Source: Rhodothermaceae bacterium bin80 (lineage in GTDB: Bacteria > Bacteroidota > Rhodothermia > Rhodothermales > Bin80). Taken from it: DNA of 64,000 nucleotides. Positions 2,892-64,000 of this stretch are shown piece after piece (position 1 is the stretch's first letter; each line of letters starts with the position of its first letter). The notes under the pieces were generated by a model. It had not been told where the DNA came from. It did not search any database and saw nothing but the letters and a program-made list of their open reading frames with translations. Where the stretch lies: positions 14,045-78,044 of the forward strand of contig MPNB01000002.1 in NCBI GenBank assembly GCA_002238805.1, written 5' to 3'. The position numbers and the translations under genes were made by a program.

Positions 2892-2956
2892 GCCTCCAAA
2901 GGTAATGATTCAGCATCGGATCCCATAGCCCCGTCACGCGTTAGTGGCTCTCACCT

Positions 2957-3011
<55 letters not shown>

Positions 3012-3030
<19 letters not shown>

Positions 3031-3668: not shown

Positions 3669-3725
3669 TGTTCGTTAAATTGCGGTTGGTAGACTCCTTT
3701 TGCATTAGACCTGTCTTTTGGTTCC

Positions 3726-5138: not shown

Positions 5139-5222
5139 CACACACACCCATCCGAAGTACCATACTCCGAGGGACGACGATCAACGCTACCTGTCCTGGA
5201 TGCTGTCCCTGACAGATGATTG

Positions 5223-36512: not shown

Positions 36513-36563
36513 TATAGACTAACAGATGTGCATGGCCATGTGGTTAAGGATCTCCTGGCCTGA
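35151..36563 (+). CDS. DUF1501 family protein with twin-arginine signal (small subunit, pair 2)
   Basis: 470 aa; STRREFLGRLGMGLGGLALSSLV; SGGPSQFELFDYKP; GRDHHPRCF; VHDLQATLMHLLG; TGATG stop/start overlap. Confidence 0.85.
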   Translation: MHECCNYNPLSTRREFLGRLGMGLGGLALSSLVNPALADGPDLIPRAKRIIYLFQSGGPSQFELFDYKPRVNAMHGQELPESVRKGQRLTGMTGFQNTLPLARSHFSFAQHGESGTWVSELMPHTAGIVDELCFVKSMHTEAINHDPAITFFLTGSQIAGRPSFGSWLSYGLGTENDNLPAFCVLITKDKGGQPLYARLWGNGFLPSQHQGVQFRSGMDPVLYLNNPDGVSSKQRRMQLDRLRELHQLKEGAPGWERIESRISQYEMAYRMQTSVPDVMDLSNEPDYIFDLYGEDAREPGTFAANCLLARRLAERGVRFIQLFHQGWDHHGGLPSGIQVQSRETDQPSAALVRDLKQRGMLDDTLVIWGGEFGRTNYCQGRLTDVDYGRDHHPRCFTLWMAGGGMRSGFSYGETDDLGYNVVRDPVHVHDLQATLMHLLGIDHERLTFRYQGRRYRLTDVHGHVVKDLLA

Positions 36564-39500: not shown

Positions 39501-41035
39501 GCAATCACTATACACCGAACAGCTTGAGGAATTTTCCAAGGATCCCGAAGCGGCTAGACAGCTATTGGAAACCGGGGAGTCTCAACTGCAAGCGGGACTG
39601 AGCCCCGTTGAATGGGCTGCACATACCATGGTTGCCAATGCATTATTATCCTTTGATGAAGTTATTGAGAAATACTGATGCATGCGTGTGGTAATTATGA
39701 TCCTCTCAGCACTCGCAGGGAGTTTCTGGGGCGTCTTGGCATGGGGCTGGGCGGGCTCGCGTTGTCCTCGCTAGTAAATCCGGCCCTGGCCACTGGGACG
39801 GATTTGATCCCGCGCGCAAAGCGTATTATTTATTTGTTCCAGAGCGGTGGCCCCTCGCAGTTTGAACTATTCGACTATAAGCCACAGGTTAATGCCATGC
39901 ACGGGCAGGAGCTGCCCGAATCCGTCCGCAAAGGACAGCGGCTTACCGGCATGACAGGCTTCCAGAACACGTTGCCCCTGGCCCGCTCACACTTTTCTTT
40001 TGGTCAACATGGGGAGAGCGGAACCTGGGTGAGCGAATTGATGCCGCATACTGCAGGGATTGTGGATGAATTATGCTTCGTGAAATCCATGCATACCGAA
40101 GCAATCAATCATGATCCGGCGATTACATTCTTTCTTACGGGATCACAGATCGCGGGTCGGCCATCATTCGGATCATGGCTCAGCTACGGACTCGGAACAG
40201 AAAACGATAACCTGCCTGCATTTTGCGTGCTCATTACTAAAGACAAGGGGGGCCAGCCACTCTATGCCCGACTCTGGGGGAATGGGTTTCTCCCATCCCA
40301 GCACCAGGGAGTGCAGTTCAGAAGCGGCATGGATCCTGTACTTTACCTAGGCAATCCTGATGGTGTCTCTTCAAAACAACGACGAATGCAGCTCGACCGC
40401 CTTCGGGAATTGCATCAGTTGAAAGAAGGAGCGCCCGGATGGGAGCGCATTGAGTCACGGATCGCTCAGTACGAAATGGCCTATCGTATGCAGACATCTG
40501 TACCCGATGTTATGGACCTTTCCAATGAACCGGACTATATCTTTGATCTTTACGGCGAAGATGCCCGGGAACCCGGTACCTTTGCCGCCAACTGTCTTTT
40601 GGCCCGGCGTCTGGCAGAACGGGGCGTACGCTTTATCCAGCTCTTCCATCAGGGATGGGATCATCACGGAGGACTGCCATCCGGCATTAGAGTCCAGTCA
40701 GGGGAAACCGATCAACCCTCGGCTGCACTTGTGCAGGACCTCAAACAACGGGGTATGCTTGACGATACCTTAGTCATTTGGGGTGGAGAGTTTGGGCGCA
40801 CTAATTACTGCCAGGGACGCCTTACAGATGTGGATTACGGTCGTGATCATCATCCTAGATGTTTCACACTCTGGATGGCTGGTGGAGGTTTACGCTCCGG
40901 TTTCAGCTACGGTGAGACTGATGATCTTGGCTATAATGTAGTTCGCGATCCGGTGCATGTGCATGATTTGCAAGCAACCCTGATGCATCTCCTAGGAATT
41001 GATCATGAGCGGCTTACCTTCAAGTATCAGGGCCG
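36513..41035 (+). repeat. tandem segmental duplication, copy B
   Basis: Colinear with copy A; high identity ends after CAGGGCCG at about 41035, inside the 3' end of the third DUF1501 gene. Confidence 0.95.
36526..39678 (+). CDS. PSCyt1 / PSCyt2(DUF1549) / LamG-like / PSD1(DUF1553) protein, predicted lipoprotein (large subunit, pair 3; duplicate of pair 2)
   Basis: 1050 aa, colinear with 31993..35151 and sharing all its motif boxes; leader ...[10 protein letters not shown]. Confidence 0.85.
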
Positions 41036-41090
41036 TCGTTACCGCCTTACGGATGTACACGGCACCGTCGTAAAACCTCTGATAGCATGA
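39678..41090 (+). CDS. DUF1501 family protein with twin-arginine signal (small subunit, pair 3; duplicate of pair 2)
   Basis: 470 aa, differs from 35151..36563 at only about 15-20 residues by eye, including the last about 10 residues. Confidence 0.85.
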   Translation: MHACGNYDPLSTRREFLGRLGMGLGGLALSSLVNPALATGTDLIPRAKRIIYLFQSGGPSQFELFDYKPQVNAMHGQELPESVRKGQRLTGMTGFQNTLPLARSHFSFGQHGESGTWVSELMPHTAGIVDELCFVKSMHTEAINHDPAITFFLTGSQIAGRPSFGSWLSYGLGTENDNLPAFCVLITKDKGGQPLYARLWGNGFLPSQHQGVQFRSGMDPVLYLGNPDGVSSKQRRMQLDRLRELHQLKEGAPGWERIESRIAQYEMAYRMQTSVPDVMDLSNEPDYIFDLYGEDAREPGTFAANCLLARRLAERGVRFIQLFHQGWDHHGGLPSGIRVQSGETDQPSAALVQDLKQRGMLDDTLVIWGGEFGRTNYCQGRLTDVDYGRDHHPRCFTLWMAGGGLRSGFSYGETDDLGYNVVRDPVHVHDLQATLMHLLGIDHERLTFKYQGRRYRLTDVHGTVVKPLIA

Positions 41091-52406: not shown

Positions 52407-54383
52407 ATGATTCGTGTCGTTGCCCTTGTTCTGTTGATTGCAGCATCTAGTGCGACTGCTACACAGGCGCAGTTTCTGGGCTGTCCACTCATTGACCAGA
52501 TTACGCTGCAGGCATGCAAGGTGCTAGAAAAACTCTTCTACGATACGGACGGGTATAACTGGCGCAACGTACGCGGCTGGCTTCGGACGAACCAACCCTG
52601 TGATTGGTACGGTATCACATGCAGATCCTCGAGATGGCCAAGGGAAATCATACACATTGACCTTTCCGGCAACAACCTGACTGGTACACTGCCGGGAGAT
52701 CTGGCATTCCTGCAGGAACTGCAATCCCTTCGGATCGACAACAGTGGTCCGGGCGTCCGACTAAGAAAACTGACCGGCCAAATCCCGACAACCCTCGGAG
52801 ATCTTGAGTACCTGGAGGTTCTAACACTGGGTAATAATGCCTTCACAGGCACCATCCCGGCAGAACTCGGAAACCTGCCCAATCTTCGGGAACTAAGTCT
52901 GGAAGCTAATGAACTGGAAGGACCAATACCCGAGAGACTTGGACAATTATTGCAATTGCAGCGCCTTGATCTCAGTGAGAATCATTTGGGAGGATCAATT
53001 CCCGATACACTCCGCAATCTGACCAAGCTAGAGTACCTCAACTTGCGCCAAAATATGTTCACTGGAAACCTACCAGTATGGCTGGGAGATTTCAATATGC
53101 TCAGGTTTTTTGATGCAAGCCAAAATCAACTGTCGGGGAGGATACCGGAAGAATTCTCCAATCTAGACGAACTTCTCTGGCTATCCCTCGCTGACAACAA
53201 TCTGGAAGGCGCTCTGTCCCTCTCCATAGCCACCTTTGCTGCAGGCATAAATAACTGTGACCTGCAAGGAAATGGCGTATGCATTCCAGATGCACCCCCA
53301 TATGCCAACCTGGATCAAGTTTGCTCGCTGTCTCGAGACAATGCGTGTAAAGCATGTGAAGGGCCCAATTGCGAAAGCCTTGAATCTATCTACGTTGAGA
53401 CAGGAGGGGCGACATGGACACAAAATAATGGATGGCTCGCCAGTTCTCAGCCATGCGATTGGCATGGCGTCAACTGTACCGGTGAAGCAATAACACATTT
53501 GATCCTGCCGGATAATGGCATGGTGGGTAAGTTACCCGCCGCTCTATCGTCCATGCAAAGCCTTGAAGTCCTCGACCTATCTGGAAATAACCTTCAAGGG
53601 TCCATGCCGGCAAAGTACGCTGCACTCACCAATCTGGATATTCTGGATCTTAGCGACAACAAGCTGACGGGCGCCCTGCCACTCCAGGTCGCAGTTCTTG
53701 GCACAAAACTGTCCCAGTGCAACCTCTCAAACAATGCCGGTATCTGCGTACCCGATAGTCCAGAATATGCAGCACTTGACACTAGCCCTATCTGTCATCT
53801 CCAGCTTCGCGGAGACTGCCTGGGCTACGATCTTGTCGCTGTAAGTGAGCTGAAAGCTATGCCGGGGGAACGATCAATTCGTCTTACCTGGTCTATAACA
53901 CCATCCTCCTCCGCGATTACGTTCTTTGTCGAAAACACGCAGCAGCCACCGGTGACCATCGGCCAGGTTCAGGGGAACAGTGAGGCGCAGACCACCTTTA
54001 CGTACACCGTAGAGGATCTGGATCCAGGTCAATATTCTTTCCAGATCCGGCAAGTAACGGCCAACGGCGCCTACAGGGTTACCGGACCTGTGACTGCTGA
54101 ATTGTATGCCGAAGGCCTTGTGACAGAGAAAGCTTATCCTAATCCATTTTCCACGGAAGCCGTTCTTCAGTTCACCTCCGGCACATACGGATCAGTCGAT
54201 ATCGCACTGTATGATCTTCTTGGTCGTCGGATCCAGACTCTTTTCAGCGGCACACCTCCACTTCATCAATCAACCCGGATCAAGATCAAAGCCCATGGAC
54301 TCTCGGCCGGAACCTACATAGTGCGCAGCCGCATAGAAGATCAACCGGCATCCTCCCAGCGTATAGTATTCGTCAGGGACTAG
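52407..54383 (+). CDS. secreted leucine-rich-repeat protein (plant-type 24-residue LRRs, two LRRNT-like caps) with T9SS C-terminal sorting domain
   Basis: 658 aa; signal peptide; caps ...NQPCDWYGITC and ...SQPCDWHGVNC; LRRs such as LSGNNLTGTLPGDLAFLQELQSL and NAFTGTIPAELGNLPNLRELSL; FN3-like segment; C-terminal YPNPFSTEAVLQF...IALYDLLGRRIQTLF (Por secretion tail). Confidence 0.8.
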   Translation: MIRVVALVLLIAASSATATQAQFLGCPLIDQITLQACKVLEKLFYDTDGYNWRNVRGWLRTNQPCDWYGITCRSSRWPREIIHIDLSGNNLTGTLPGDLAFLQELQSLRIDNSGPGVRLRKLTGQIPTTLGDLEYLEVLTLGNNAFTGTIPAELGNLPNLRELSLEANELEGPIPERLGQLLQLQRLDLSENHLGGSIPDTLRNLTKLEYLNLRQNMFTGNLPVWLGDFNMLRFFDASQNQLSGRIPEEFSNLDELLWLSLADNNLEGALSLSIATFAAGINNCDLQGNGVCIPDAPPYANLDQVCSLSRDNACKACEGPNCESLESIYVETGGATWTQNNGWLASSQPCDWHGVNCTGEAITHLILPDNGMVGKLPAALSSMQSLEVLDLSGNNLQGSMPAKYAALTNLDILDLSDNKLTGALPLQVAVLGTKLSQCNLSNNAGICVPDSPEYAALDTSPICHLQLRGDCLGYDLVAVSELKAMPGERSIRLTWSITPSSSAITFFVENTQQPPVTIGQVQGNSEAQTTFTYTVEDLDPGQYSFQIRQVTANGAYRVTGPVTAELYAEGLVTEKAYPNPFSTEAVLQFTSGTYGSVDIALYDLLGRRIQTLFSGTPPLHQSTRIKIKAHGLSAGTYIVRSRIEDQPASSQRIVFVRD

Positions 54384-54505
54384 TCGAGTATACTCAGGGG
54401 ATATCAGTAGCCAACCATGCCCCAACAGATCGCATGCTTCAGGCCCCTTACGAACGTCGGGTTTTGACTCACAATGAAACAATGCCTATCCCGAACTATT
54501 CTACG

Positions 54506-54580
54506 GTTTTGTCCGCAGGTGCCAAGATAGAGCTTCCTCAACCGGCCCGTGCAGTTTTATCCACAGGTGCACAGGATAGA
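54506..54580. repeat. imperfect about 27-bp direct repeat (2 copies, about 47-bp period) upstream of hsdM
   Basis: GTTTTGTCCGCAGGTGCCAAGATAGA (54506-54531) versus GTTTTATCCACAGGTGCACAGGATAGA (54554-54580). Confidence 0.6.
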
Positions 54581-54645
54581 ATAGTGTACAGACCACAGGG
54601 AAGTGTATCATTGGGTATCTTACGCGAAATAGGGAATGAGGCAAT

Positions 54646-56232
54646 ATGACGCAGGAAAAGAAGAAATTATCTGAAAAAAAAGCCGCACCTGATGCGAACA
54701 GTGCCGTAGTTGGGTACGAAGCCGAACTCTGGGATATGGCCAACTTGCTTCGGGGAAGCATGGACGCGGCCGAATACAAGCACATCGTTTTGGGGCTAAT
54801 ATTTCTCAAGTACATATCCGACGCGTTTGAGGAAAAACGCCGCGACCTCGAAACACGAATATCCGAAGGAGATGATCAAGATAATCCAGAGGATCCTGAT
54901 CAATACCGTATGGACAACATATTCTGGGTGCCTCCCGAAGCTCGCTGGCAGGACATCCAGGCGCAGGCAAGACAACCCTCCATCGGAAGACTCATCGATA
55001 AAGCGATGATGGAAATCGAGCGCGTAAACAAGGAGCTTAAGAGTGTCCTACCGAAAGACTATGCTCGCCCAGCGCTGAATAAGCAAAGGCTCGGCCAAGT
55101 AATTGATCTTATCAGCAACATAAAAGTCGGCGACAGTAATGCGCGATCAAAGGATGTTCTGGGAAGGGTCTACGAATACTTTTTATCTCAATTTGCGAGT
55201 GCTGAAGGAAAGAGGGGCGGGGAGTTCTATACACCGCGCTGCATCGTTCGGCTTTTGGTTGAGATGATAAAACCCTATCGGGGTCGAGTCTATGATCCGT
55301 GCTGCGGCTCATCCGGCATGTTCGTGCAATCGATAGAATTTATTCGCTCACATGCTACCGGTAATGGTAATGGGGGTAAAGCACGGGGAGACATATCGAT
55401 TTATGGTCAGGAGTCGAATTATACGACATGGCGCCTAGCAAAAATGAATCTTGCCATCCGCGGCATTGAAGGTCAAATTGCACACGGCGACAGCTTCCAC
55501 AACGATAGACACCTGGATTTGAGAGCGGATTTTATCCTTGCCAATCCACCGTTTAATGTTTCTGATTGGGGAGGAGAGCGTTTGGTAGAGGATAAGCGCT
55601 GGCGCTACGGTGTGCCGCCGAAGAGTAATGCCAATTTCGCCTGGATTCAGCACATGGTTCACCATCTTGCCCCGAGGGGCGTTGCGGGGTTCGTGCTGGC
55701 CAACGGGTCTATGTCTTCGAATCAGTCCGGCGAGGGCGAGATCCGCAAGAACCTAGTCGAGGCCGAACTCGTGGACTGCATGGTCGCCCTTCCCGGCCAA
55801 CTGTTCTACTCGACACAGATTCCTGCCTGTCTTTGGTTCCTTGCACGCCGACGCAGGCGGCGCGGCGAGATCCTCTTCATTGATGCGAGGAAGCTCGGAC
55901 GGATGATGGACCGGACGCACCGCGAACTGACCGGCGAGGACATCACCCGGATCGCGGACACCTACCATGCTTGGCGAGCTACCAAGGAAGGGGGCAGCTA
56001 CGCCGATGTTCCCGGCTTCTGCAAGAGCGCCGCGCTGGACGAGGTCCGCAAGCACGGCCACATGTTGACGCCGGGCCGGTATGTGGGCGTGGAGCCGCAG
56101 AAGAACGACGGAGAACCCTTCAAGGACAAGATGAAGCGGCTGGTCGCTGAGTTTCGAGAGCAACAGGCCGAAGGTGGTCGACTTGATGCTGCGATCAACG
56201 AGAACTTGGAATCATTAGGATTCGGAGGATGA
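54646..56232 (+). CDS. hsdM: Type I restriction-modification system, N6-adenine DNA methyltransferase subunit
   Basis: 528 aa; HsdM N-domain ([32 protein letters not shown]); AdoMet box [12 protein letters not shown]; catalytic LANPPFN. Confidence 0.93.
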
Positions 56233-56239
56233 GGGGGCA

Positions 56240-56665
56240 ATGAATATAGACACTACCTTCCTGCGCCGCTGTATTGCCTCGCTAGAACGAGCGATGGAGG
56301 AAATCAAACGGCATGAGGGCGGCGACAATATCATGTACGATATCTATCGCGCCGCGTGCGTCAAGGAATTTGAACTTGTACTTGAGCAGTCCGGTAAGCT
56401 GTTGCGCAAGCTGCTGGCCGCCTGGTTTGCCAGCAACAAACAGGCCGACCGTCTCCATTTTAAGGATATCTTCCGCCATGCGGCTCGTCACGACCTGATC
56501 GCGTCTGACGCAACAGAGCGCTGGCTGCGCTATCGTGACAACCGCAATCTCACCGCTCACGACTACGGTGAAGATTTTGCGGAGCACACACTCAAGCTGC
56601 TTCCCGCATTCATTGCTGATGCGAAATCCTTGGCTGACATGCTTGATCGTACGAACGATGAGTAA
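56240..56665 (+). CDS. HEPN-domain protein, HI0074-type nucleotidyltransferase substrate-binding family (pair 1)
   Basis: 141 aa; Rx4H motif in RDNRNLTAHDY; starts 7 nt after the hsdM stop. Confidence 0.8.
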   Translation: MNIDTTFLRRCIASLERAMEEIKRHEGGDNIMYDIYRAACVKEFELVLEQSGKLLRKLLAAWFASNKQADRLHFKDIFRHAARHDLIASDATERWLRYRDNRNLTAHDYGEDFAEHTLKLLPAFIADAKSLADMLDRTNDE

Positions 56666-56990
56666 CCGGTTGCTTCTCTCTCCAAGACACCGGTGCATTT
56701 TGGAGGCGCTGTTGCGGGAGCACTTGCCCGATGTGGAGGTGTGGGCGTATGGCAGCCGCGTGAGCGGCCGGGGCCACCAAGGCAGTGATCTCGACCTCGT
56801 GCTACGGGGGCCAGGGCTCAACGAAATTCCATTCGAACGGCTGATGGACTTTAAGGATGCCGTCCGGGAATCGACGATTCCTTTTCTCGTCGAGGCGAGG
56901 GACTGGGCGAGACTGCCGGAGCGATTCCATCGGGAGATCGGGCGGGAGCATGTGGTGGTTGTGGGGCTACAGGAAATACGGACATCATAG
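56658..56990 (+). CDS. minimal nucleotidyltransferase (MNT) domain protein (pair 1)
   Basis: 110 aa from ATG 56658 (ATGAGTAA overlap with the HEPN stop); YGSRVSG...GSDLDLVL (GS and DxD motifs) ... PFLVEARDW. Confidence 0.8.
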   Translation: MSNRLLLSPRHRCILEALLREHLPDVEVWAYGSRVSGRGHQGSDLDLVLRGPGLNEIPFERLMDFKDAVRESTIPFLVEARDWARLPERFHREIGREHVVVVGLQEIRTS

Positions 56991-57199
56991 GCCGACCGTT
57001 TCGTGATGATTAGTTTTTCGGCATTGGGACTGCATTTTTCCTGATCACCTTACTTCGTACTGGTAGGAGACCTGCTTGTATCTTCCATGGAGGCGCCCTA
57101 TCTTTCGCCGTATGCAGTATAATTTTTGCGGTGTTTGAGCACGGAGAATCCCGCTGCATGTACACGCGAGGTTCGCCGTATTCCTTGGGAAGTTTTCCA

Positions 57200-57455
57200 G
57201 GCACAAACGTCGACATCGCTGGTGATATGTCCCAGAGTGCTAGGTGCTTGTGTTTGGATCTCGCGCGACTTGGACTGCAAGGACTACTAGAACCTGGATA
57301 TTGCTATCATGGGCGAGGAGCCTTTGCCGCCGCACACACACTCGGCTTTCGATGAGGAATTTGTCGATTCTGGTCTTCCGTTTAGTGTGGATATCGTAAG
57401 ATTGGCCAAGGTTAAGGATAGCTTTAGTGTCATCATCCGAAAATATGGACAATAA
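57200..57455 (+). pseudogene. decayed MNT-type nucleotidyltransferase remnant
   Basis: One frame reads VLVFGSRATWTARTT (57244-57288), bounded upstream by TAG 57241-57243. A different frame, after TAG 57288-57290, reads NLDIAIMGEEPLPPHTHSAFDEEFVDSGLPFSVDIVRLAKVKDSFSVIIRKYGQ* (57291-57455). No intact ORF joins them. Confidence 0.55.
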
Positions 57456-57507
57456 TCCTGCATTCAATGTAAAACCGTGATCGCCGTGCGGGCCTAAGGG
57501 TAGTACC

Positions 57508-57641
57508 CAAGAGAATGATGACGAATCGTTCGAGGACAGGATGGAGAGGCTGGTAGTTGAACTCCGCGAACGACAGGTGGAAGGCTTCGGTCTGATACCG
57601 TGATCCAAAAGAATTTAATGGCTTTAGGATTGGGAGGTTAA
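57508..57641 (+). pseudogene. remnant of a second hsdM 3' end (last about 45 codons, frameshifted)
   Basis: 57508-57603 reads QENDDESFEDRMERLVVELRERQVEGFGLIP*, and 57600-57641 in a shifted frame reads VIQKNLMALGLGG*. Compare the intact hsdM C-terminus [44 protein letters not shown]. Confidence 0.7.
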
Positions 57642-57647
57642 TAGCTT

Positions 57648-58061
57648 ATGAGTAACTCAGACGAACAGCACTGGCAGCAGCGGCTAAACAATCTCGGGAC
57701 TGCATTCGTACAGTTGACGGATGTCTGTGAACGCGAATGGTACGACAATCTGGAGCTTGCAGGGCTGATCAAGACGTTCAAGTTCTGTTTCGGGCTATCG
57801 TGGAACGTTCTAGAGGATTTATTCCTCTATGAGGAGTATGATGCGAAGGTGCCACGAGCGGTGATTTGCAAGAGCTTTGATGTTGATTATATTGACGAGA
57901 GCGATTGCGAGACACTGCTTGACGCCTTGGATAAACGTGATCTGTTGAGTCATGTATACTTGAGTGATGTCGCTCGGGAAGCTGAGGTGCTGATCAAAGG
58001 ACACTACTATCCGGTCCTCCTTCGGCTCCACCAGAATCTAGATGCCAGACGAACGCAATGA
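57648..58061 (+). CDS. HEPN-domain protein, HI0074-type family (pair 2)
   Basis: 137 aa; Rx4H motif in KRDLLSHVY; starts 6 nt after the stop of the hsdM 3' remnant. Confidence 0.75.
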   Translation: MSNSDEQHWQQRLNNLGTAFVQLTDVCEREWYDNLELAGLIKTFKFCFGLSWNVLEDLFLYEEYDAKVPRAVICKSFDVDYIDESDCETLLDALDKRDLLSHVYLSDVAREAEVLIKGHYYPVLLRLHQNLDARRTQ

Positions 58062-58429
58062 CGGGCAGTCTCAAGGACATGCATCGCGATGCGATTATTT
58101 CCAAACTAGCGGCCAACGATTGCGTGGAGCGGGCAGTGCTATTTGGATCCAGAGCAATGGTAACGGACGCTGTGTCATCCGATGAGGTCATCGTATTATT
58201 TGGTAATCGGCTGACACTGACGGATCAGGTGCGCTTGGCCGCAGCATTGGACGAGATCCCGATGGCACAATCGGTTGACCTGAGTCTATATGATTCAATA
58301 CGTGACAGGGCGTCAGAGAGTCATATTCGGAATCACGGTATTGAGTGGTTTGCGCGCCCGATGGCAATACCCAGCGCTCGCGCCATATCACCGTCCGATA
58401 TACGGGAATCAGTCCACTTGGGGCAGTAA
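58058..58429 (+). CDS. MNT-domain nucleotidyltransferase (pair 2), catalytic DxD apparently degenerate
   Basis: 123 aa; ATGA overlap with the HEPN gene; AVLFGSRA (GS motif) but SSDEVIVLF where DxD is expected; unusually long C-terminal tail. Confidence 0.65.
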   Translation: MTGSLKDMHRDAIISKLAANDCVERAVLFGSRAMVTDAVSSDEVIVLFGNRLTLTDQVRLAAALDEIPMAQSVDLSLYDSIRDRASESHIRNHGIEWFARPMAIPSARAISPSDIRESVHLGQ

Positions 58430-58442
58430 AAGTTCGGCGAGT

Positions 58443-58718
58443 GACCTTACAGCAGAAGATCACAAGACCATTCAATAGTTGCTAGATGAGCATCTCCCGA
58501 GCACAGGTGTCTGGATTAACGGTTCTGGAGCAAAGTGGATCTCCGCCCCAAAATCAGTTTTGGACCTTGTGGTGTTCACGACACCTGAGCAGCAGCAAGA
58601 GATCAATGACTTACGAAAAACATTCGAAGAGAGTAATTTGCCGTTTCGGGTAGATCTCTCCATTTGGGAAGAAATGTCAGAAAACTTTCACGAAGACTAT
58701 ATCGTTTTGGCTAACAGA
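58443..58718 (+). pseudogene. third, decayed MNT-like segment with in-frame TAG, continuous in frame with hsdS
   Basis: DLTAEDHKTIQ-TAG(58476-58478)-LLDEHLPSTGVWINGSGAKWISAPKSVLDLVVF...NLPFRVDLSIWEEMSENFHEDYIVLANRV is colinear with MNT pair 1 (LSPRHRCILEALLREHLPDVEVWAYGSRVSGRGHQGSDLDLVL...IPFLVEARDWARLPERFHREIGREHVVV); GS and DxD motifs are degraded. Confidence 0.6.
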
Positions 58719-60032
58719 GTGTCGGCACAAGTAACCACTAACTGGAGAGAAACATCTATTGGAGAGATAGCAGACATTGTGGGAGGCGGCACACCATCAA
58801 CTAAGGATCGCGGAAATTTTAATGGTTGTATCCCTTGGTTAACCCCAAAAGATCTCTCGGGCACTCATGAACGCTACATTCGGCGCGGTGAGCGAAATTT
58901 GTCGCAGAAGGGGCTCAATAATTCCTCTGCGAGGTTGCTTCCCGCACATTCTGTTTTGCTCTCAACTCGCGCTCCAATCGGATATGTAGCTCTCGCGAAG
59001 AATCCAATTGCAACCAACCAAGGGTTCCGCAGTCTCATTGTCCGAGATGGCGTGATTCCAGAGTTTCTATATTACTGGATAAAGTTGAATACCCAAGAGC
59101 TTGAGCGCCATGCTTCCGGGTCGACATTCCGAGAACTCTCGGGATCTGCACTTAAGGACATTCGGATTAAGGTCCCATCCCTTCCTGAACAACGCACCAT
59201 TACGCATATTCTCAGCACGCTGGACGATAAGATTGAGTTGAACCGTCGGATGAACGAGACGCTGGAGGCGATGACTCGGGCACTGTTTAAGTCTTGGTTT
59301 GTTGATTTCGATCCTGTGCGAGCCAAAATGGAGGGACGAGATACTGGATTACCGAAACACATAGCTGATCTGTTTCCAGGCCGACTAGTGGAATCTGAAC
59401 TGGGAAAAATTCCAGAGGGATGGAGGGTTGGGAGTGTGAATGACATATGCAAGAAAATTGAAAACGGAGGGACACCCAAACGTTCAGTTCAGGAGTACTG
59501 GAATGGGAATATCCAGTGGTTCAAAACGTCTGAGTTAGTGGATGAGCCACTTCTAAATTCTTCCGAACAAATTACCCAAAAAGGACTCGATTACTCATCT
59601 TGCAAACGTTGGCCAAAGGGAACAGTATTAATTGCTTTGTATGCCGCTCCGACAGTGGGGCGATTAGGGATTCTGGAAATATCTGCGACCGCTAATCAAG
59701 CCTGTTGCGGACTGAATGCAGAGTCCAATTTTGGAAATCAATTTCTGTATTACGTGTTACTGTTTAGAAGATCTTATTTCCACAGAATTGCCGTGGGGGC
59801 GGCACAGCAAAACATCAGCCAAAAGATTGTTAGAGATTGCCGGATTATTATACCTTGCACAGTAATATCTAGGACATTTCATAGTTGGGCAGAGGCAATT
59901 TATTCGCAGAGGGTCACGGAACTATCGGAATCTCGTACTCTTTCCGACCTCCGTAATACCCTTCTCCCTAAACTCATTTTGGGAGAAATCCGCTTGCCCA
60001 AGGCTGGGACGGAGATGGAGGCCCAAACATGA
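58674..60032 (+). CDS. hsdS: Type I restriction-modification system, specificity subunit
   Basis: Two target-recognition domains (IGEIADIVGGGTPST...; VNDICKKIENGGTPKR...) separated by the conserved helix LPEQRTITHILSTLDDKIELNRRMNETLEAMTRALFKSWFVDFDP. ORF is open from TTG 58479; functional start is probably ATG 58674 or GTG 58719. Confidence 0.88.
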   Translation: MSENFHEDYIVLANRVSAQVTTNWRETSIGEIADIVGGGTPSTKDRGNFNGCIPWLTPKDLSGTHERYIRRGERNLSQKGLNNSSARLLPAHSVLLSTRAPIGYVALAKNPIATNQGFRSLIVRDGVIPEFLYYWIKLNTQELERHASGSTFRELSGSALKDIRIKVPSLPEQRTITHILSTLDDKIELNRRMNETLEAMTRALFKSWFVDFDPVRAKMEGRDTGLPKHIADLFPGRLVESELGKIPEGWRVGSVNDICKKIENGGTPKRSVQEYWNGNIQWFKTSELVDEPLLNSSEQITQKGLDYSSCKRWPKGTVLIALYAAPTVGRLGILEISATANQACCGLNAESNFGNQFLYYVLLFRRSYFHRIAVGAAQQNISQKIVRDCRIIIPCTVISRTFHSWAEAIYSQRVTELSESRTLSDLRNTLLPKLILGEIRLPKAGTEMEAQT

Positions 60033-60856
60033 GTTCTCTTACGGACATCGAAAAGCGCTATTTCGAGAAGCTGTTCGGAATGAGTAGCGGCTATGTGCTT
60101 GACTTCTCCAATGCCACTTTTGACAAGTTCTTCCGACGATACAATGTCAATATCCACGGTCCAAAATATCAGACCTTCGGAACATCCAAGGCGAAAAAAC
60201 TTCGCGCCTTTTGGGAATCGGAGCCTGATCAGCTTGTTGGACCTGTGCTCTCCGAAATGCTGGCTTCCTATGAGGCCGATTGCGAGCTCACGGGCCAGGA
60301 TGTTGATAAGATCCCGCTGGAACGCGCACGGCGCATTGTTGACCGTCTCACCGGTGTATCTATGGCCCGTGACTCTGCCGGGAAAGAAAGCGAATTCTTG
60401 GACCGCGAGTTTGCCATCCCAAGCATCCAGAAGCTACCGATCGATCCTCGGGTCGTCCCGATCGTCGAAGCACGACTGAACGAGGCCCGCATAGCGTTGG
60501 GTGCCGGTGCTCATTTATCCGTGATCTTTCTGTGCGGTAGCGTCTTAGAAGCCGTCCTGCTTGGTGCTGCTCGGCAGAGCCCAGCGATCTTCAATCAGGC
60601 GAAAGCAACACCGACAAAAAATTGTTCGCCAAAACGCTTTCACGAATGGAGCCTCGCACAGCTGATCAATGTCGCGTACGAGGTCGGCATCCTGAAGCTC
60701 GACATCAAGAAGTTCAGTCACGGATTGCGCGACTTCCGAAATTATATCCATCCATACGAGCAATTGGCGTCGGGTTTCACGCCGGACGAACACACCGCTA
60801 AAGTCTGCTTCCAAGTTCTCAAGGCGGCGCTGGCAAGCTTGGCAGGGGAACGCTAA
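60029..60856 (+). CDS. uncharacterised R-M-linked protein with C-terminal HEPN-like helical domain
   Basis: 275 aa; ATGA overlap with the hsdS stop; C-terminal helical region ...SVIFLCGSVLEAVLLGAA...WSLAQLINVAYEVGIL...FSHGLRDFRNYIHPYE... contains an R-x6-H / RN..H type motif; no family recognised with certainty. Confidence 0.6.
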   Translation: MSSLTDIEKRYFEKLFGMSSGYVLDFSNATFDKFFRRYNVNIHGPKYQTFGTSKAKKLRAFWESEPDQLVGPVLSEMLASYEADCELTGQDVDKIPLERARRIVDRLTGVSMARDSAGKESEFLDREFAIPSIQKLPIDPRVVPIVEARLNEARIALGAGAHLSVIFLCGSVLEAVLLGAARQSPAIFNQAKATPTKNCSPKRFHEWSLAQLINVAYEVGILKLDIKKFSHGLRDFRNYIHPYEQLASGFTPDEHTAKVCFQVLKAALASLAGER

Positions 60857-60953
60857 TGATCCGTGTCCTCATAACCCCATTTGTTCTCCGCTGAGCACGC
60901 AAGTGGTCGTGGCGAACGAGACATTGCTTGCGATCCGGCACCGAAGTAGTCAA

Positions 60954-61142
60954 ATGACGACCTTTACTGAGTTGGAAATCGGAACCACCGCACTTGAGTG
61001 GCTTAAAGGCTTGGGCTGGCATGTGAACCACGGTATAGACATCGGACCGCAGACGAAAGGCGCGGAACGTGCGGACTACATTGAAGTTCTTCCCGAACGC
61101 CGGCTGCGGGATGCCTCGGGTCGGCTGAACCTTGATCTAGAG
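60954..61142 (+). pseudogene. remnant of an hsdR 5' end (first about 63 codons only)
   Basis: MTTFTELEIGTTALEWLKGLGWHVNHGIDIGPQTKGAERADYIEVLPERRLRDASGRLNLDLE parallels the N-terminus of the intact hsdR at 63352 (SESVVEEASLDWFREIDYLVIGGTDMQPG..LRETYEDVLFPTTLHQALSRLNPELP), then diverges and stops at 61187. Confidence 0.65.
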
Positions 61143-61468
61143 AGATTAGAGATTTTAAGCTATTATCCTAGTCAAAGATGGGATTGATAAACGGCAGACA
61201 AGATTGATTTGGGAGGATGTCCTCGGCGTTGTCTTCCCCTCCTCACAAAAGCAGATTCGAAAACAATTTGAGGCTTTACAGCATTTAACAAATATCTCAC
61301 CAAGAAGATCACTGCTAGGAAACCACCACTAGAATATGAGGGTTGCATACTACCCAACAACGAGACTGGCAAGGCGTCCGTGGAGACCCATATAGACTAC
61401 TTGATAAAGGGAAGCAACACCTATAGAAACCATCTTGAAAGAAAATTGGAGCCCGTAGTGATAAACCC

Positions 61469-62653
61469 ATGCCCCACATAGAGCATTTTTCTATCCGCGG
61501 TTTCAAGTCAATTCGCAAGCTCGAGAATTTCGAACTAAAGCCCCTGAACATATTGATCGGCGCCAACGGAGTCGGAAAAAGTAATCTTCTGAGTCTGTTT
61601 AAAATGCTCTCTGCTCTTTCCCAGAGGCGTCTTCAGCTTTTCGTCAAGAACGAGGGTGGCCCGGATGCATTGCTGTTCGGTGGCCGAAAACTAACTTCAA
61701 AGCTTGAAGTGGCCCTGTCATTTGAAAACAATCGCTATAGATACGAATTCTCGCTTGAACCGACAGCTGACTCAGTAGCCTTCTCCGGCGAGAAGCTCCT
61801 CACAGCGTTCGGTAGTTTAGTGTCGGCCGATGGGAGTAGTGAATCGGATATGTTTGATGATATATCTAATATTGTTGAATATATGTCTGATATTGATCAG
61901 CACATGTCTCATGCACATCCTGCAGAATTTGCATCTTACGTAGACTCCGCATCTTTTGCAGAATTTGTATCTTTTGCAGAATTTGCATCTTATGTTTTGT
62001 CCCATATGGAACACTGGCGCGTGTTTCATTTTCAGGATATGAGCGATACGGCTCACGTACGAAATCAGTCAGATGTACGCGATAATCTTCGACTAAGACC
62101 GGACGCTGGGAATCTTGCACCTTTTCTGCGCCATCTCCGTGAACATTATCCTAACCATTATCGAAGAATCATAGATGTGATCCGACTCTCGGCTCCGTTC
62201 TTTAAAGACTTCGTCTATCGCAAAAATCAGAACCTGGGAGACAGTATGGATCTTGAATGGGAGGCGTGGGGAGATCCAGACATGGCGTTTGGTCCACGAC
62301 AGCTCTCAGACGGTACGTTACGTTTCATCTGTCTCGCTACTCTGTTAAATCAGCCAGAAATCCTTCGGCCGAACCTCATTCTTATTGACGAGCCCGAACT
62401 AGGATTGCATCCATTCGCGCTGACGCTCCTAGCCGAAATGATCCAGCAAGCAGCCGACTTGCAACAGATTATTATTTCAACACAATCCGCAGAACTTGTA
62501 AGTCATTTTGAACCCGAAGATATCGTGGTTGTCGATCGCAAGAACAAAGAATCCGTTTTTAGAAGGCTCAATTCGGAGCTCCTTGCCAGTTGGCTTGAAG
62601 ACTATACGCTCGGCGACCTCTGGAAAATGAATGTACTTGGCGGCAGACCCTAA
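61469..62653 (+). CDS. ABC-type (AAA_15/AAA_21-like) ATPase, defence-island type
   Basis: 394 aa; IRGFKSI...LNILIGANGVGKSNLL (Walker A); signature-like RQLSDGTLRF; Walker B/D-loop LILIDEPELGLHP; IISTQS. Confidence 0.8.
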   Translation: MPHIEHFSIRGFKSIRKLENFELKPLNILIGANGVGKSNLLSLFKMLSALSQRRLQLFVKNEGGPDALLFGGRKLTSKLEVALSFENNRYRYEFSLEPTADSVAFSGEKLLTAFGSLVSADGSSESDMFDDISNIVEYMSDIDQHMSHAHPAEFASYVDSASFAEFVSFAEFASYVLSHMEHWRVFHFQDMSDTAHVRNQSDVRDNLRLRPDAGNLAPFLRHLREHYPNHYRRIIDVIRLSAPFFKDFVYRKNQNLGDSMDLEWEAWGDPDMAFGPRQLSDGTLRFICLATLLNQPEILRPNLILIDEPELGLHPFALTLLAEMIQQAADLQQIIISTQSAELVSHFEPEDIVVVDRKNKESVFRRLNSELLASWLEDYTLGDLWKMNVLGGRP

Positions 62654-62655
62654 CC

Positions 62656-63336
62656 ATGAAGAAAGTCATTATTGCCTGCGAAGGACAAACCGAAGAGGCT
62701 TTCGTGAAGAGACTTCTCTATGGTGAGCTCTGGCCGAAAGAAGTGTTTGCAGAACCACGTCTCATCCCCACTTCTTCTCATGGAAGAGGCGGTGCGCTCA
62801 AGGGACAACGTGTACTCCGCTTCCTTCGAAACACCCTTCGGGAACAACATAACACCTATGTCACGACATTTTTCGATCTGGTTTCCCTGCCGGCGGATTT
62901 CCTTGGACTTGCGGGTATCTCCGCGACGACAGACCCGATTGATTGCGCGACAAGGATTGAGTCTGCGTTTCATGATGTCGTTGTACGCAAGACAGAGTGT
63001 CGGTCCGAACGCTTTTTTCCTCACATTCAACCTTATGAATTTGAAGCCCTCCTATTTTCGGATACAAGCTGTTTTGCTGAGGCAGAGCCCGCGTGGGAGG
63101 CATTTGTTGGAAAACTCTTAAGCATACGTAAAAGCTCAAAAGGCCCTGAGTACATAAACGACGGAATCAATACGCATCCGTCGGCGCGACTCCGGGATCT
63201 TCTTCGCCCACGATACAAAAAAGTCATACACGGTACCAAAGTCTCAACTAAGATAGGCATCGCCTGCATGCGGTCGGAGTGTCAGCATTTTGACGGCTGG
63301 CTCAAGCGTATCGAGAACCTCCCCGAGCTTGATTAA
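62656..63336 (+). CDS. DUF4276-like protein (putative Toprim-like partner of the ATPase)
   Basis: 226 aa, starts 2 nt after the ATPase stop; N-terminal KKVIIACEGQTEEAFVKRLL (hhhhEGxTE, Toprim-type first motif); YEFEALLFSD; C-terminal CQHFDGWLKRIENL, as I remember for DUF4276. Confidence 0.65.
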   Translation: MKKVIIACEGQTEEAFVKRLLYGELWPKEVFAEPRLIPTSSHGRGGALKGQRVLRFLRNTLREQHNTYVTTFFDLVSLPADFLGLAGISATTDPIDCATRIESAFHDVVVRKTECRSERFFPHIQPYEFEALLFSDTSCFAEAEPAWEAFVGKLLSIRKSSKGPEYINDGINTHPSARLRDLLRPRYKKVIHGTKVSTKIGIACMRSECQHFDGWLKRIENLPELD

Positions 63337-63351
63337 CAGGAGACATAACCC

Positions 63352-64000
63352 ATGGCGCTGTTATCAGAATCGGTGGTGGAAGAGGCGTCTCTCGACTGGT
63401 TCCGCGAGATTGACTACTTGGTAATCGGTGGAACAGACATGCAGCCCGGCGCGAACTCCCTTCGCGAAACGTATGAAGACGTCCTATTCCCAACAACGCT
63501 GCATCAGGCGCTCTCCCGTCTGAATCCCGAGCTCCCCCTAGAAGCAATTGACGACGCTAAGCGCAAACTGCTTAACCCCGAAGGCCAAACTCTTGAAGCC
63601 CGAAACCGCGCGTTTCACCGCATGGCCATAGACGGCGTGACGGTTGAATTCCAAGGAGACGACGACAAGCCCCAATGGGACCATGCCCGAGTGTTTGATT
63701 TTGACGCCCCCGAGAATAATGACTGGATTGTCGCCAACCAGTTCACCGTGACTGAGGGTGAACATACTCGTCGCCCAGACATCGTGGTGTTTGTGAACGG
63801 TCTTCCCCTAGCCGTGATCGAACTCAAGTCTCCCATTGATGAAAACGCAACAATTTCATCCGCTTGGCGACAACTGCAGACCTACAAGAGAGAAATCCCC
63901 TCGCTTTTTGTCTTCAATCTGGCGCTGGTCATATCAGACGGTGTGAAAGCACGTGTCGGCTCGCTTACAGCGGGTCTTGAATGGTTCAAGCGATGGCGGA
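63352..64000 (+). CDS. hsdR: Type I restriction enzyme, restriction (helicase-nuclease) subunit, N-terminal part (runs off the window)
   Basis: Not in the ORF track because no stop is reached. My translation from ATG 63352: MALLSESVVEEASLDWFREIDYLVIGG...RRPDIVVFVNGLPLAVIELKSP...WRQLQTYKREIPSLFVFN...ISDG, the classical HsdR N-terminal PD-(D/E)xK nuclease region. Confidence 0.9.
   Translation, partial: MALLSESVVEEASLDWFREIDYLVIGGTDMQPGANSLRETYEDVLFPTTLHQALSRLNPELPLEAIDDAKRKLLNPEGQTLEARNRAFHRMAIDGVTVEFQGDDDKPQWDHARVFDFDAPENNDWIVANQFTVTEGEHTRRPDIVVFVNGLPLAVIELKSPIDENATISSAWRQLQTYKREIPSLFVFNLALVISDGVKARVGSLTAGLEWFKRWR

Follow-up and report, generated by a model that had tools for sequence, protein, structure and literature searches.

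A stack of HEPN/MNT toxin-antitoxin pairs and remnants between hsdM and hsdS of a type I restriction-modification operon

Genes and remnants at the locus

The window, a 64,000-nucleotide stretch of a Rhodothermaceae genome assembly, carries a type I restriction-modification (R-M) operon in which two HEPN/MNT pairs and several remnants lie between hsdM and hsdS. The features are as follows.

54646–56232, + strand: hsdM, type I methyltransferase subunit, 528 aa, intact (Pfam N6_Mtase 1.4e-107, HsdM_N 4.3e-26)
55636–56990, + strand: high-GC3 block, comprising the last third of hsdM, HEPN1 and MNT1 (GC3, GC profile)
56240–56665, + strand: HEPN1, predicted HI0074-type HEPN RNase toxin, 141 aa (Pfam NTase_sub_bind PF08780, E 7e-20)
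56658–56990, + strand: MNT1, predicted minimal nucleotidyltransferase antitoxin, 110 aa (NTP_transf_2 8.9e-7)
56991–57243, no strand: spacer without recognisable coding remnant (profile searches; no HEPN, MNT or hsdM match in any frame)
57244–57452, + strand: remnant A, MNT pseudogene (joined frames match Polbeta PF18765, 1.5e-6, and NCBIfam MntA, 2.8e-6)
57505–57638, + strand: vestigial 3′ end of a second hsdM, last ~44 codons, frameshifted (tblastn, nucleotide alignment, profile)
57648–58061, + strand: HEPN2, 137 aa, ORF open (PF08780, E 7.7e-19)
58058–58429, + strand: MNT2, 123 aa, ORF open (Polbeta 2.1e-6)
58443–58721, + strand: remnant B, MNT-like domain in frame with hsdS (Polbeta E 2.9e-4, under the cut-off)
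58479–60032, + strand: hsdS, specificity subunit, ORF from TTG 58479, 517 aa (Methylase_S 1.8e-56)
60954–61140, + strand: vestigial 5′ end of a second hsdR (Pfam HSDR_N 0.0015)
63352–64000, + strand: start of the intact hsdR, which runs off the window (coordinate mapping to identical contigs)

In the identical contigs (L001–L004), HsdR is 1039 aa long, with HSDR_N, ResIII, SWI2_SNF2 and T1RH-like_C domains. A HEC-01 pair lies downstream in the same R-M operon.

Contigs of 67–82 kb from ENA, two JGI samples and one NCBI MAG agree at 100% identity over the 10 kb surrounding the locus, and two shorter Logan contigs are identical wherever they overlap it; five assemblies agree overall. Because the assemblies are identical, the stops and the frameshift described below are not sequencing errors. 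It is thus very improbable that the locus was chimerically assembled from the R-M operons of two strains, with erroneous stops and frameshifts: contigs of Logan assembly SRR6214543 do stop at 56913 and start again at 57536, within the spacer, but the ENA, JGI and NCBI contigs agree over the whole 10 kb.

Motif states and rates of change in the two pairs

The first-pass annotation recognised two HEPN genes, at 56240 and 57648, by their Rx4H motifs; both match PF08780, and both motifs were located. The HEPN/MNT overlaps it reported are exact, namely 8 bp at 56658–56665 (ATGAGTAA) and ATGA at 58058–58061. We assign both pairs, from their sequences, to the class I HEPN/MNT group (type VII, HepT/MntA-like), in HEPN-first order.

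Pair 1 looks intact and canonical. HEPN1 carries an RX4HXY-type motif, RNLTAHDY, at 56543–56566 (R102, H107, Y109) and also keeps E45; its nearest representative is 82% identical, and none of 10 conserved columns deviates. The GS...DLD noted earlier in MNT1 is an intact GSX10DLD. MNT1 belongs to a family of 1804 members at E ≤ 0.001, with identity up to 88%, and deviates at 2 of 64 conserved columns (family median 1). Defence islands also harbour free-standing HEPN-MNT pairs that are close homologs of pair 1. HEPN1 would act as an RNase toxin that the translationally coupled MNT1 renders harmless by AMPylating Tyr109 of RNLTAHDY, and the pair may serve as an addiction or abortive-infection module carried within the R-M operon.

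In HEPN2, the motif RDLLSHVY (57936–57959) is likewise of RX4HXY type, acceptor Tyr included. Conserved sites elsewhere are degraded (E45K, E49G, K56E, G63E, R74C and others), with 12 of 59 conserved columns deviating against a family median of 1. The site of E45K is Glu in 26/26 homologs, and K45 aligns with E47 of a Legionella HEPN (PDB 8XDJ, E 2.5e-11). E47 is an essential Mg2+ ligand in that protein; RNase activity and toxicity are both abolished by E47A but not by R98A or H103A, the Rx4H motif being dispensable for toxicity (PMC11586414). One caveat is that the essential Glu is known from one Legionella protein of modest identity to HEPN2, not from HEPN2's family.

MNT2, which had been noted to carry SDEVIV in place of DxD, indeed reads GSX10DEV, as against SD[VI]DI in its family, and its DEV aligns with DID of the Legionella MNT. 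The second Asp of DxD is kept in 31/31 aligned homologs, D44V being private to MNT2 among 32 members, and 6–7 deviations are spread over 37–55 conserved columns. The double change V43E/D44V shifts the acidic side chain by one position, and residual activity might persist.

Rates were compared by Tajima relative-rate tests against seven sister sequences. HEPN2 of the window lineage has 3–6 times more unique changes than six of the seven (p 0.0006–0.02 in 23/24 tests against these six), with no excess over the seventh, L022. MNT2 has 2–7 times more than L011, L017 and L020; its excess is not significant against L022 and several other sisters. Given E45K in HEPN2, the missing second Asp in MNT2 and the fast evolution of both genes, pair 2 is probably an inactive, open-reading-frame fossil. 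The earlier suggestion left open whether HEPN2 relies on another neutralisation mode or is inactive; loss of the Glu matching E47 favours the latter. The toxin may have been disarmed before or together with the antitoxin, and the pair would now be drifting.

The open frames, the kept ATGA coupling and the RX4HXY motif with its Tyr nonetheless leave room for some function. HEPN2 could still be a working toxin, neutralised non-catalytically by tight binding of MNT2 or through cross-AMPylation by MNT1, the only catalytically complete MNT at the locus. MntA mutants with DxD changed to ExE lose adenylylation, yet neutralise poorly rather than not at all (PMC7641770), and self-tetramerisation is a further restraint on the Legionella HEPN (PMC11586414). 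We regard a working HEPN2 as unlikely, in view of the accelerated change in both genes and of E45K, E49G and ten further conserved-site changes, at a site that is catalytic in the closest studied homolog. Cross-recognition in particular is unlikely because neither HEPN1 and HEPN2 nor MNT1 and MNT2 share significant pairwise similarity.

MNT remnants, MNT::HsdS fusions and the origin of the stack

Remnant A is a fragment of a defunct MNT gene. Its coding sequence runs in one frame over 57244–57291 and in another over 57291–57452; joined, the two score 28.7 bits against Pfam Polbeta PF18765, over the curated cut-off. The N-terminal ~25 aa are missing, a TAG lies just upstream at 57241, a 1-nt deletion lies near 57288, and the motif has NLD for DLD (GSX10NLD). 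A profile built from the remnant B family also matches 57291–57452 (E 3.9e-6). An MNT-like remnant with a frame change had been proposed at 57200–57455, and this stands, except that the TAG at 57288 sits at the frameshift point and not mid-frame. All three TAG codons listed earlier (57241, 57288, 58476) are present, but of three decayed MNT copies claimed only two were found: profile searches in six frames of 56950–57700 and 58400–58800 gave no third MNT remnant and no HEPN remnant.

The second, remnant B, is 33% identical to MNT1 (tblastn, E 2.6e-8) and aligns at 46–53% identity with intact relatives (P0391–P0399). TAG 58476 falls in its first helix, the motif is GSG...SVLD (R29G, D39V), and 4 aa are deleted. 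The first-pass annotation saw here, at 58443–58718, a degraded MNT-like stretch; the similarity and the decay hold, but the sequence is better described as the N-terminal domain of hsdS. Gene callers differ on the length of hsdS (517, 487 or 486 aa), which has further in-frame starts at 58569, 58572 and ATG 58674. Its target-recognition domains (Methylase_S, two stretches) start near residue 88, and PADLOC Specificity_I models match from residue ~87. P0391, the closest relative of remnant B, has hsdM/HEPN on one side and an hsdS-like gene on the other, with a C-terminus that continues into HsdS-like sequence. Among 31 related loci with hsdM upstream, 28 could be judged, the other 3 ending at a contig edge. 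In 20/28, a single ORF spans MNT and HsdS; a long ORF is present in 5, and a stop follows MNT in 3. Six fused proteins were tested by Pfam: five have Polbeta and Methylase_S, and the sixth NTase_sub_bind, NTP_transf_2 and Methylase_S. Since remnant B shares the reading frame of hsdS and such fusions prevail among relatives, we read it as a degenerate N-terminal MNT domain of HsdS, left over from a fusion. The usual architecture of this operon type is hsdM - HEPN - MNT::HsdS, and the fusion suggests an antitoxin physically attached to the restriction complex. We found no earlier description of an MNT::HsdS fusion.

It has also to be considered whether the two pairs form a selected unit, in which the degenerate HEPN2, MNT2 and HsdS MNT-like domain serve as non-catalytic regulators or scaffolds linking the active pair to the R-M complex. 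MNT-fused HEPN domains often lose catalytic residues and turn regulatory (PMC3710099), and a Vicinamibacterales MAG from another phylum (L015) shares both pair types and their order, at 63–70% identity (hsdM - Fic - HEPN1-like - MNT1-like - HEPN2-like - MNT2-like::HsdS). In that locus, however, pair 2 keeps the family motifs (KRNLLSHTY, SDVDIA) and the conserved Glu, and both remnant A and the hsdM scar are absent, so the degenerate states are private to the window lineage. Remnant B is still in frame with hsdS, free of frameshifts, but a stop codon truncates its first helix, and the stacked loci known here number only two. We consider such a unit quite improbable, and continue to favour decay of pair 2.

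The vestigial hsdM end in front of HEPN2 bears on how the stack arose. It was detected by tblastn with residues 485–528 of the window's own hsdM (E 1.2e-6, two frames), has 70% nucleotide identity to the hsdM 3′ end (~56102–56229) over 129 aligned bases, and is matched by an hsdM C-terminal profile (iE 2.4e-8). It stops 6 nt 5′ of HEPN2, which is the native hsdM-HEPN spacing, and window positions 57498–58360 align with 5440–6303 of L011, comprising an hsdM 3′ end, HEPN and MNT. Like scars occur in L054, L061 and L071 and upstream of a free-standing pair in L097. The hsdR vestige (29% identity to residues 1–61 of the intact hsdR, E 3e-4) is a junction scar of the same kind. Almost from end to end, the intact hsdM shares 78–80% identity with hsdM of L011, L017, L020 and L015; its GC3 is 0.47–0.59 5′ of 55636 and 0.70–0.79 3′ of it, and the GC profile agrees with a jump at about this point. 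By gene, GC3 is 0.62 in HEPN1, 0.70 in MNT1, 0.57 in HEPN2, 0.56 in MNT2 and 0.45 in hsdS. We infer that 55636–56990 is a recombinational import; the composition jump is compatible with the proposed crossover, short of proof.

Because an hsdM 3′ scar precedes HEPN2 and GC3 jumps within hsdM, we propose that the stack is the product of recombination between distinct R-M operons, anchored in hsdM homology, with an illegitimate second junction. The imported block (the hsdM 3′ third, HEPN1, MNT1 and perhaps remnant A) would have displaced the bulk of the resident hsdM 3′ region, with that gene's last ~44 codons left in front of HEPN2. The spacer had been proposed as a hotspot of repeated cassette acquisition and decay. 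It is a recurrent cassette site, related loci having Fic, DUF1016-like, GIY-YIG or a second HEPN/MNT pair there, and copies have decayed; the vestigial hsdM 3′ and hsdR 5′ ends argue for recombination of whole R-M operons instead of free-cassette insertion. Local duplication of the four MNT-like sequences is excluded by their pairwise identities (≤33%). Our verdict is that the locus is an ordinary type VII toxin-antitoxin module in turnover, and the full account, with two type VII pairs in the hsdM-hsdS spacer, pair 1 intact, pair 2 a fossil and the stack built by recombination, seems to us reasonably probable.

Comparison with known systems

The pairs had been likened to HI0073/HI0074 of Haemophilus influenzae, and these are the nearest solved structures to pair 1 (HEPN1 to HI0074, 1JOG, 2.6e-11; MNT1 to HI0073, 1NO5, 3.7e-13). 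Unlike that pair, pair 1 sits in a type I R-M operon. It has both motifs of class I HEPN/MNT (PF08780/PF01909) of Yao et al. 2020, RX4HXY and GSX10DXD, in adjacent, overlapping genes. Although MNT is almost always the first gene in HEPN/MNT pairs (PMC3710099), the window pairs are HEPN-first. So is Legionella pneumophila lpg2920/lpg2921 (8XDJ, 8XEH, 8XEO; Jin et al. 2024, PMC11586414), whose genes overlap by 8 bp, as in pair 1, and whose MNT is short (about 100 aa). Among solved structures, those of this system come nearest to HEPN2 (E 2.5e-11) and to the MNT2 family (E 3.4e-15); with Lys at the E47 site and DEV for DID, pair 2 fails two of the system's functional features.

The mechanism proposed here matches that of Shewanella oneidensis HepT/MntA (SO_3166/SO_3165, type VII), in which the GSX10DXD MNT poly-AMPylates the Tyr of RX4HXY and so blocks the RNase (PMC7641770). 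The Shewanella toxin differs in being DUF86 (PF01934) and its operon MNT-first, and NCBIfam HepT and MntA equivalog scores in the window are about 23 bits, far under the cut-off of 60; we would class the window pairs as relatives of HepT/MntA outside that equivalog.

Nesting of defence cassettes within multi-gene defence operons (type I R-M, BREX and Hma) is described in the 2024 preprint of Payne et al. (10.1101/2024.01.29.577857); its HEC-01 pair also occurs in the operon studied here, and the passages searched say nothing of HEPN/MNT pairs, MNT::HsdS fusions or hsdM-end scars. A further parallel is the PrrC anticodon nuclease, a HEPN-superfamily RNase encoded between hsd genes of the EcoprrI type Ic operon and proposed to be kept silent by the R-M complex (PMC3506569; PMC3710099). 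The MNT::HsdS fusions of relatives suggest a physical coupling comparable to PrrC's. The window system differs in having no ABC ATPase domain, and its control would be covalent, through predicted AMPylation by a separate or HsdS-fused MNT.

Layout and integrity of the operon

The first-pass annotation described two HEPN genes, two apparently intact MNT genes and three decayed MNT copies between hsdM and hsdS of a type I restriction-modification (R-M) operon. This stack is real and most of its description holds, except for the tally of decayed copies: six-frame profile searches of the non-coding stretches recover two MNT remnants, A and B, but not a third. Likewise, tblastn and profiles of four families detect no further MNT remnant, and no HEPN remnant, in 56950-57700 or 58400-58800. 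Below, HEPN1 and MNT1 are termed pair 1, and HEPN2 and MNT2 pair 2.

Features of the operon, in window coordinates
54646-56232, + strand: hsdM
56240-56665, + strand: HEPN1
56658-56990, + strand: MNT1
56991-57243: spacer of ~250 bp without a recognisable coding remnant
57244-57452, + strand: MNT remnant A
57505-57638, + strand: vestigial 3' end of a second hsdM
57648-58061, + strand: HEPN2
58058-58429, + strand: MNT2
58443-58721, + strand: MNT-like remnant B, in frame with hsdS
ending at 60032, + strand: hsdS
60029-60856, + strand: 275-aa gene (orf275), overlapping the hsdS stop
60954-61140, + strand: remnant of the 5' end of another hsdR, matching the intact hsdR over residues 1-61 at 29% identity
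61469-63336, + strand: PADLOC candidate system HEC-01
from 63352, + strand: intact hsdR (1039-aa HsdR in identical contigs)

The type I R-M complement is complete within this one operon: it consists of HsdM, of HsdS, in which two target-recognition domains are present, and of HsdR, which has the domains expected of it. The operon is probably functional. The window sequence belongs to contig JAPOOD010000109.1 of the Bacteroidetes MAG GCA_026713585.1. The 10 kb from 54001 to 64000 are 100% identical across all spanning assemblies (ENA, two JGI, NCBI), and two shorter Logan contigs match the window wherever they cover it. The stops and the frameshift can accordingly be taken as genuine, and sequencing or assembly error is ruled out as their source. 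In the Logan assembly of SRR6214543, one contig stops at 56913 and another begins at 57536 (the ends of contigs L005 and L010); this break, inside the spacer with remnant A, may reflect strain variation there. Scans for promoters and terminators yielded no excess over shuffled sequences and no convincing terminator in the spacer, with a promoter model that is ill-suited to Bacteroidetes.

Several neighbouring features deserve mention. Between hsdS and hsdR lie an ABC-type ATPase gene (AAA_21; 61469-62653) and a DUF4276 gene (62656-63336), which match PADLOC HEC-01A and HEC-01B (7e-131 and 2e-65). The preprint defining HEC-01 reports no defence against the phages tested (10.1101/2024.01.29.577857). 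The product of orf275, which contains RDFRNYIH near residue 235, has no match in Pfam, NCBIfam or PADLOC. Its low-confidence single-sequence AlphaFold model (pLDDT 58.5) gives no Foldseek match below E 0.4, and many of the weak matches are HEPN folds (Csm6, sacsin HEPN, HI0074, ST0689), only a hint from a predicted structure that orf275 may encode a third HEPN, one without a partner. A 71-aa ORF at 54434-54649, gene-called in some assemblies, overlaps the start of hsdM. Farther upstream, 27424-41090 holds three successive ORF pairs of near-equal sizes (about 1050 aa, then 470-486 aa), probably tandem paralogous gene pairs.

Two pairs and two remnants in different states

Family searches confirm both HEPN genes. 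HEPN1 and HEPN2 match PF08780 (NTase_sub_bind) at 7e-20 and 7.7e-19, both above the gathering score, and the Rx4H motifs reported earlier extend to RX4HXY (RNLTAHDY in HEPN1, RDLLSHVY in HEPN2), a column conserved in the alignments of both HEPN families. In each pair the HEPN gene comes first and overlaps the MNT gene, a Legionella-type feature, and the overlaps are exactly as annotated (ATGAGTAA in pair 1, ATGA in pair 2). MNT1 keeps its motif as GSX10DLD (GSRVSGRGHQGSDLD), and MNT2 is indeed degenerate, with GSX10DEV and no GSX10DXD. This motif is also missing from the remnants, which have NLD (A) and VLD (B). Under the class I criteria for HEPN/MNT type VII modules (Yao et al. 2020), both pairs thus have the toxin family and RX4HXY; GSX10DXD is present in pair 1 and absent from pair 2 and the remnants. 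Scores against the NCBIfam equivalogs HepT_toxin and MntA_antitoxin are 17-27 bits, under the curated cut-off of 60, and those against TIGR01987 (HI0074) are 49.6 bits for HEPN1 and 47.3 bits for HEPN2, with a cut-off of 55.8. The closest solved structures to pair 1 are HI0074 and HI0073.

To gauge the state of each gene, we counted deviations at conserved alignment columns; the family median is 1 for each of the four genes. HEPN1 deviates at 0 of 10 such columns and MNT1 at 2 of 64, and pair 1 is canonical. The corresponding counts are 12 of 59 for HEPN2 and 6-7 of 37-55 for MNT2. Alone among 32 family members, MNT2 lacks the second Asp (SDEVIV versus SD[VI]DI). The deviations of HEPN2 cluster in the helix-2 motif, where TFEFxFELSWKxLKDLLF in the family corresponds to TFKFCFGLSWNVLEDLFL in the window. 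In the lpg2920/lpg2921 system of Legionella, the closest solved relative of HEPN2, both RNase activity and toxicity require the Mg2+ site Q44/E47 of the HEPN; the RX4HXY substitutions R98A and H103A make almost no difference, and AMPylation takes place on Y105 (Jin et al. 2024, PMC11586414). K45 of HEPN2 aligns with E47 of that protein, although the role of this Glu comes from a protein of only modest identity to HEPN2; Glu occupies the position in 26 of 26 homologs, and HEPN1 retains it as E45. HEPN2 thus differs from Legionella-type HEPN-MNT systems, in which a Mg2+-binding Glu lies in toxin helix 2 (Jin et al. 2024).

Rates of change were compared using Tajima relative-rate tests. For HEPN2, the window branch carries 3-6 times more unique changes than six of seven sisters, with p of 0.0006-0.02 in 23 of 24 tests against those six (the exception, sister L021 with outgroup L025, gives p 0.08); against the seventh, L022, no significant excess is seen. 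For MNT2, unique changes are 2-7 times more numerous than in L011, L017 and L020, with weaker or no excess relative to other sisters. The first-pass annotation had left pair 2 with either a different mode of neutralisation or no activity. The Lys at the E47 position, the lost Asp and the accelerated change favour inactivity. Because MNT2 has lost its Asp and HEPN2 combines helix-2 deviations and K45 with faster change, pair 2 most likely comprises a disarmed toxin and a disarmed antitoxin whose reading frames are still open. It is also possible that the V43E/D44V swap in MNT2 leaves residual activity.

Alternatively, the two pairs may form a selected two-pair unit. Locus L015, from a Vicinamibacterales MAG, has the two pair types ordered as in the window; a scan of genome contigs with HEPN2 alone returned only 2 loci, L015 among them. 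The HEPN1-like gene of L015 reads RNDTARDY, with His replaced by Arg. We considered whether each stacked locus might hold exactly one active pair, and dropped the idea: the L015 HEPN1-like protein has RX4R, yet Rx4H was dispensable in the Legionella study. In L015 a Fic-domain gene additionally lies between hsdM and what is a second copy of the two-pair stack; the stretches that hold this gene and the HEPN1-like gene are 2798-3913 and 3981-4445. For pair 2 in the window, disarmament remains the preferred reading. It would mean that a redundant pair can be disarmed without any broken frame, and it serves as a warning that an open ORF with Rx4H is insufficient to call a HEPN toxin active.

To read remnant A, two frames have to be joined over a 1-nt deletion near 57288; the joined product, from which the first ~25 residues are missing, matches Polbeta at 1.5e-6, above cut-off. 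For remnant B the Polbeta match is at 2.9e-4; this remnant is 33% identical to MNT1 (E 2.6e-8) and has intact relatives at 46-53% identity. Its lesions are a TAG at 58476 in the first helix, the substitutions R29G and D39V, the latter at the first catalytic Asp, and a deletion of 4 residues. In its closest relative, protein P0391, encoded downstream of hsdM and a HEPN gene, the C-terminus continues into HsdS-like sequence. Gene callers start the window hsdS at 58479, 58569 or 58572, and a further ATG lies at 58674. Remnant B is best read as a degenerate MNT domain of HsdS.

Origin of the stack

HEPN1 and HEPN2 have no significant pairwise BLAST match, nor has MNT2 with the other MNT copies, and the best MNT pair shares 33% identity; this rules out recent local duplication as the origin of the copies. 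The MNT-like sequences represent four separate lineages. Relatives of MNT1 number 1804 at E <= 0.001, with identity up to 88%; those of MNT2 are 60-76% identical and those of remnant B 46-53%; and remnant A is nearest to distant members of the MNT2 group (30-37% identity).

The hsdM gene supplies a clue to how these lineages came together. Immediately upstream of HEPN2 lie the ~44 terminal codons of an hsdM; they are frameshifted and end 6 nt before the HEPN2 start, the native hsdM-HEPN spacing. Locus L011, which holds the closest MNT2 homolog, is organised as hsdM - HEPN - MNT - hsdS - hsdR. It aligns with the window over 54712-56237 (its hsdM) and again over 57498-58360 (its hsdM 3' end, HEPN and MNT). 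Relative to an L011-like operon, 56238-57497, with HEPN1, MNT1 and remnant A, is extra DNA flanked by two hsdM 3' ends that have diverged to 70% identity. GC3 within hsdM rises at about 55636 from 0.47-0.59 to 0.70-0.79, and downstream is 0.62 in HEPN1 and 0.70 in MNT1, then 0.57 in HEPN2 and 0.45 in hsdS. Only GC3 discriminates here; sliding protein identity of hsdM against relatives did not tell donor and resident halves apart. We infer that the imported block comprised the 3' third of hsdM together with HEPN1 and MNT1, that its entry would have involved a single homologous crossover within hsdM plus an illegitimate junction, and that the last codons of the resident hsdM were left behind as a scar.

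The first-pass annotation also proposed an acquisition hotspot between hsdM and hsdS, and comparison of the spacer across related loci bears this out. In L054, L061 and L071 the interval from hsdM to HEPN contains a second hsdM end, and an hsdM end directly precedes a free-standing pair 1 homolog in L097, where no R-M genes are nearby. In the window operon, the hsdR 5' end upstream of HEC-01 is a junction scar resembling the hsdM one. Other cassettes occupy the same site in related loci: Fic (L015, L054), DUF1016-like nucleases (L031, L089) and GIY-YIG (L034). Because the scars recur and other cassettes are found in the same place, the hotspot idea is supported. These comparisons suggest that HEPN/MNT pairs travel with a piece of hsdM, and recombination between whole R-M operons is indicated as the mechanism. 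The window would illustrate a stacking route within a defence operon, hsdM-anchored recombination that leaves hsdM-end scars.

Coordinates of hsdM 3' remnants beside HEPN/MNT cassettes are 2203-2247 (L054), 972-1070 (L061), 1063-1137 (L071), 5513-5575 (L097), 6300-6365 (L023-L025) and 1080-1142 (L050). In L034, the GIY-YIG-like segment (5118-5591; YFVYVIACEGGSYYIGHTDNLPRRWQEH) is apparently inserted in frame in the C-terminal part of hsdM.

MNT-HsdS fusions and their possible meaning

The MNT2-family alignment, used as query, retrieved 80 metagenome loci. HEPN precedes MNT wherever the two genes were both detected; about thirty of the 80 are free-standing pairs, and 31 have hsdM upstream. Among these 31, MNT and HsdS form one continuous ORF in 20; in 5 a long ORF continues from MNT without an hsdS match, in 3 the contig ends in or just after MNT, and in 3 a stop follows MNT. 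R-M-embedded relatives noted for a continuous MNT-HsdS ORF are L015, L017, L020-L022, L030-L032, L034, L039, L053, L055, L056, L060, L061, L063, L064, L068, L077, L082, L083, L085, L087, L089, L091 and L095. Pfam assigns Polbeta/NTP_transf_2 followed by Methylase_S in the five fusions tested, the fused MNT domains retain GSX10DXD, and one PADLOC Specificity_I model carries an N-terminal MNT. A representative search also yielded P0242 (649 aa), a Pfam-confirmed triple fusion HEPN::MNT::HsdS in which both HEPN and MNT belong to the pair 1 type; its HEPN keeps RX4H, with Tyr replaced by Glu. Intact fusions of the form hsdM - HEPN - MNT::HsdS occur in relatives; the MNT-like domain of the window shares the hsdS frame, with the TAG at 58476 interrupting its first helix and a motif that reads VLD. 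Querying a plasmid collection with the fusion-protein N-terminus gave only distant free-standing pairs. We found no specific description of an MNT-HsdS fusion, or of HEPN/MNT between hsdM and hsdS, in the open-access literature searched, which is not proof of novelty.

In the established scheme, MNT-catalysed AMPylation of the RX4HXY Tyr neutralises the HEPN RNase (PMC7641770, PMC11586414). Its motifs and homology suggest that pair 1 would work this way, MNT1 modifying the Tyr of HEPN1. Taken alone, the window has ordinary biology, with one probably functional HEPN/MNT module and fossils. The wider interest lies in the MNT::HsdS architecture, in hsdM-anchored stacking and in the decay of a pair without a broken frame. 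HEPN/MNT has been described as possibly the most abundant toxin-antitoxin type, with a physiological role that is called obscure (PMC7641770); here that question takes a concrete and testable form, in this locus and its relatives. In relatives, a catalytically intact MNT is fused to HsdS, which suggests that this operon type links control of the toxin to the R-M complex. In most R-M-embedded copies antitoxin and HsdS share one polypeptide, so that control of the toxin may depend on the condition of the restriction complex.

A bolder reading, which we consider rather unlikely, is that hsdM - HEPN - MNT::HsdS constitutes a distinct coupled system and that the window is a snapshot of its turnover. 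Here, a type VII antitoxin would be physically tethered to the specificity subunit of the type I R-M complex, so that the HEPN RNase is AMPylated only while that complex is intact. Loss of the operon or phage anti-restriction attack would release HEPN, providing addiction or a PrrC-like second line of defence. An intact free-standing pair would have entered the window operon by recombination between homologous hsdM sequences, and redundancy of the older tethered pair and of the MNT domain on HsdS would explain why both are decaying.

An HsdS-tethered MNT is comparable in logic to PrrC/EcoprrI (PMC3506569), but the domain set is different. PrrC-type anticodon nucleases, guarded by an R-M complex, have an N-terminal ABC ATPase fused to the HEPN nuclease, whereas HEPN1 (141 aa) and HEPN2 (137 aa) each consist of one domain.
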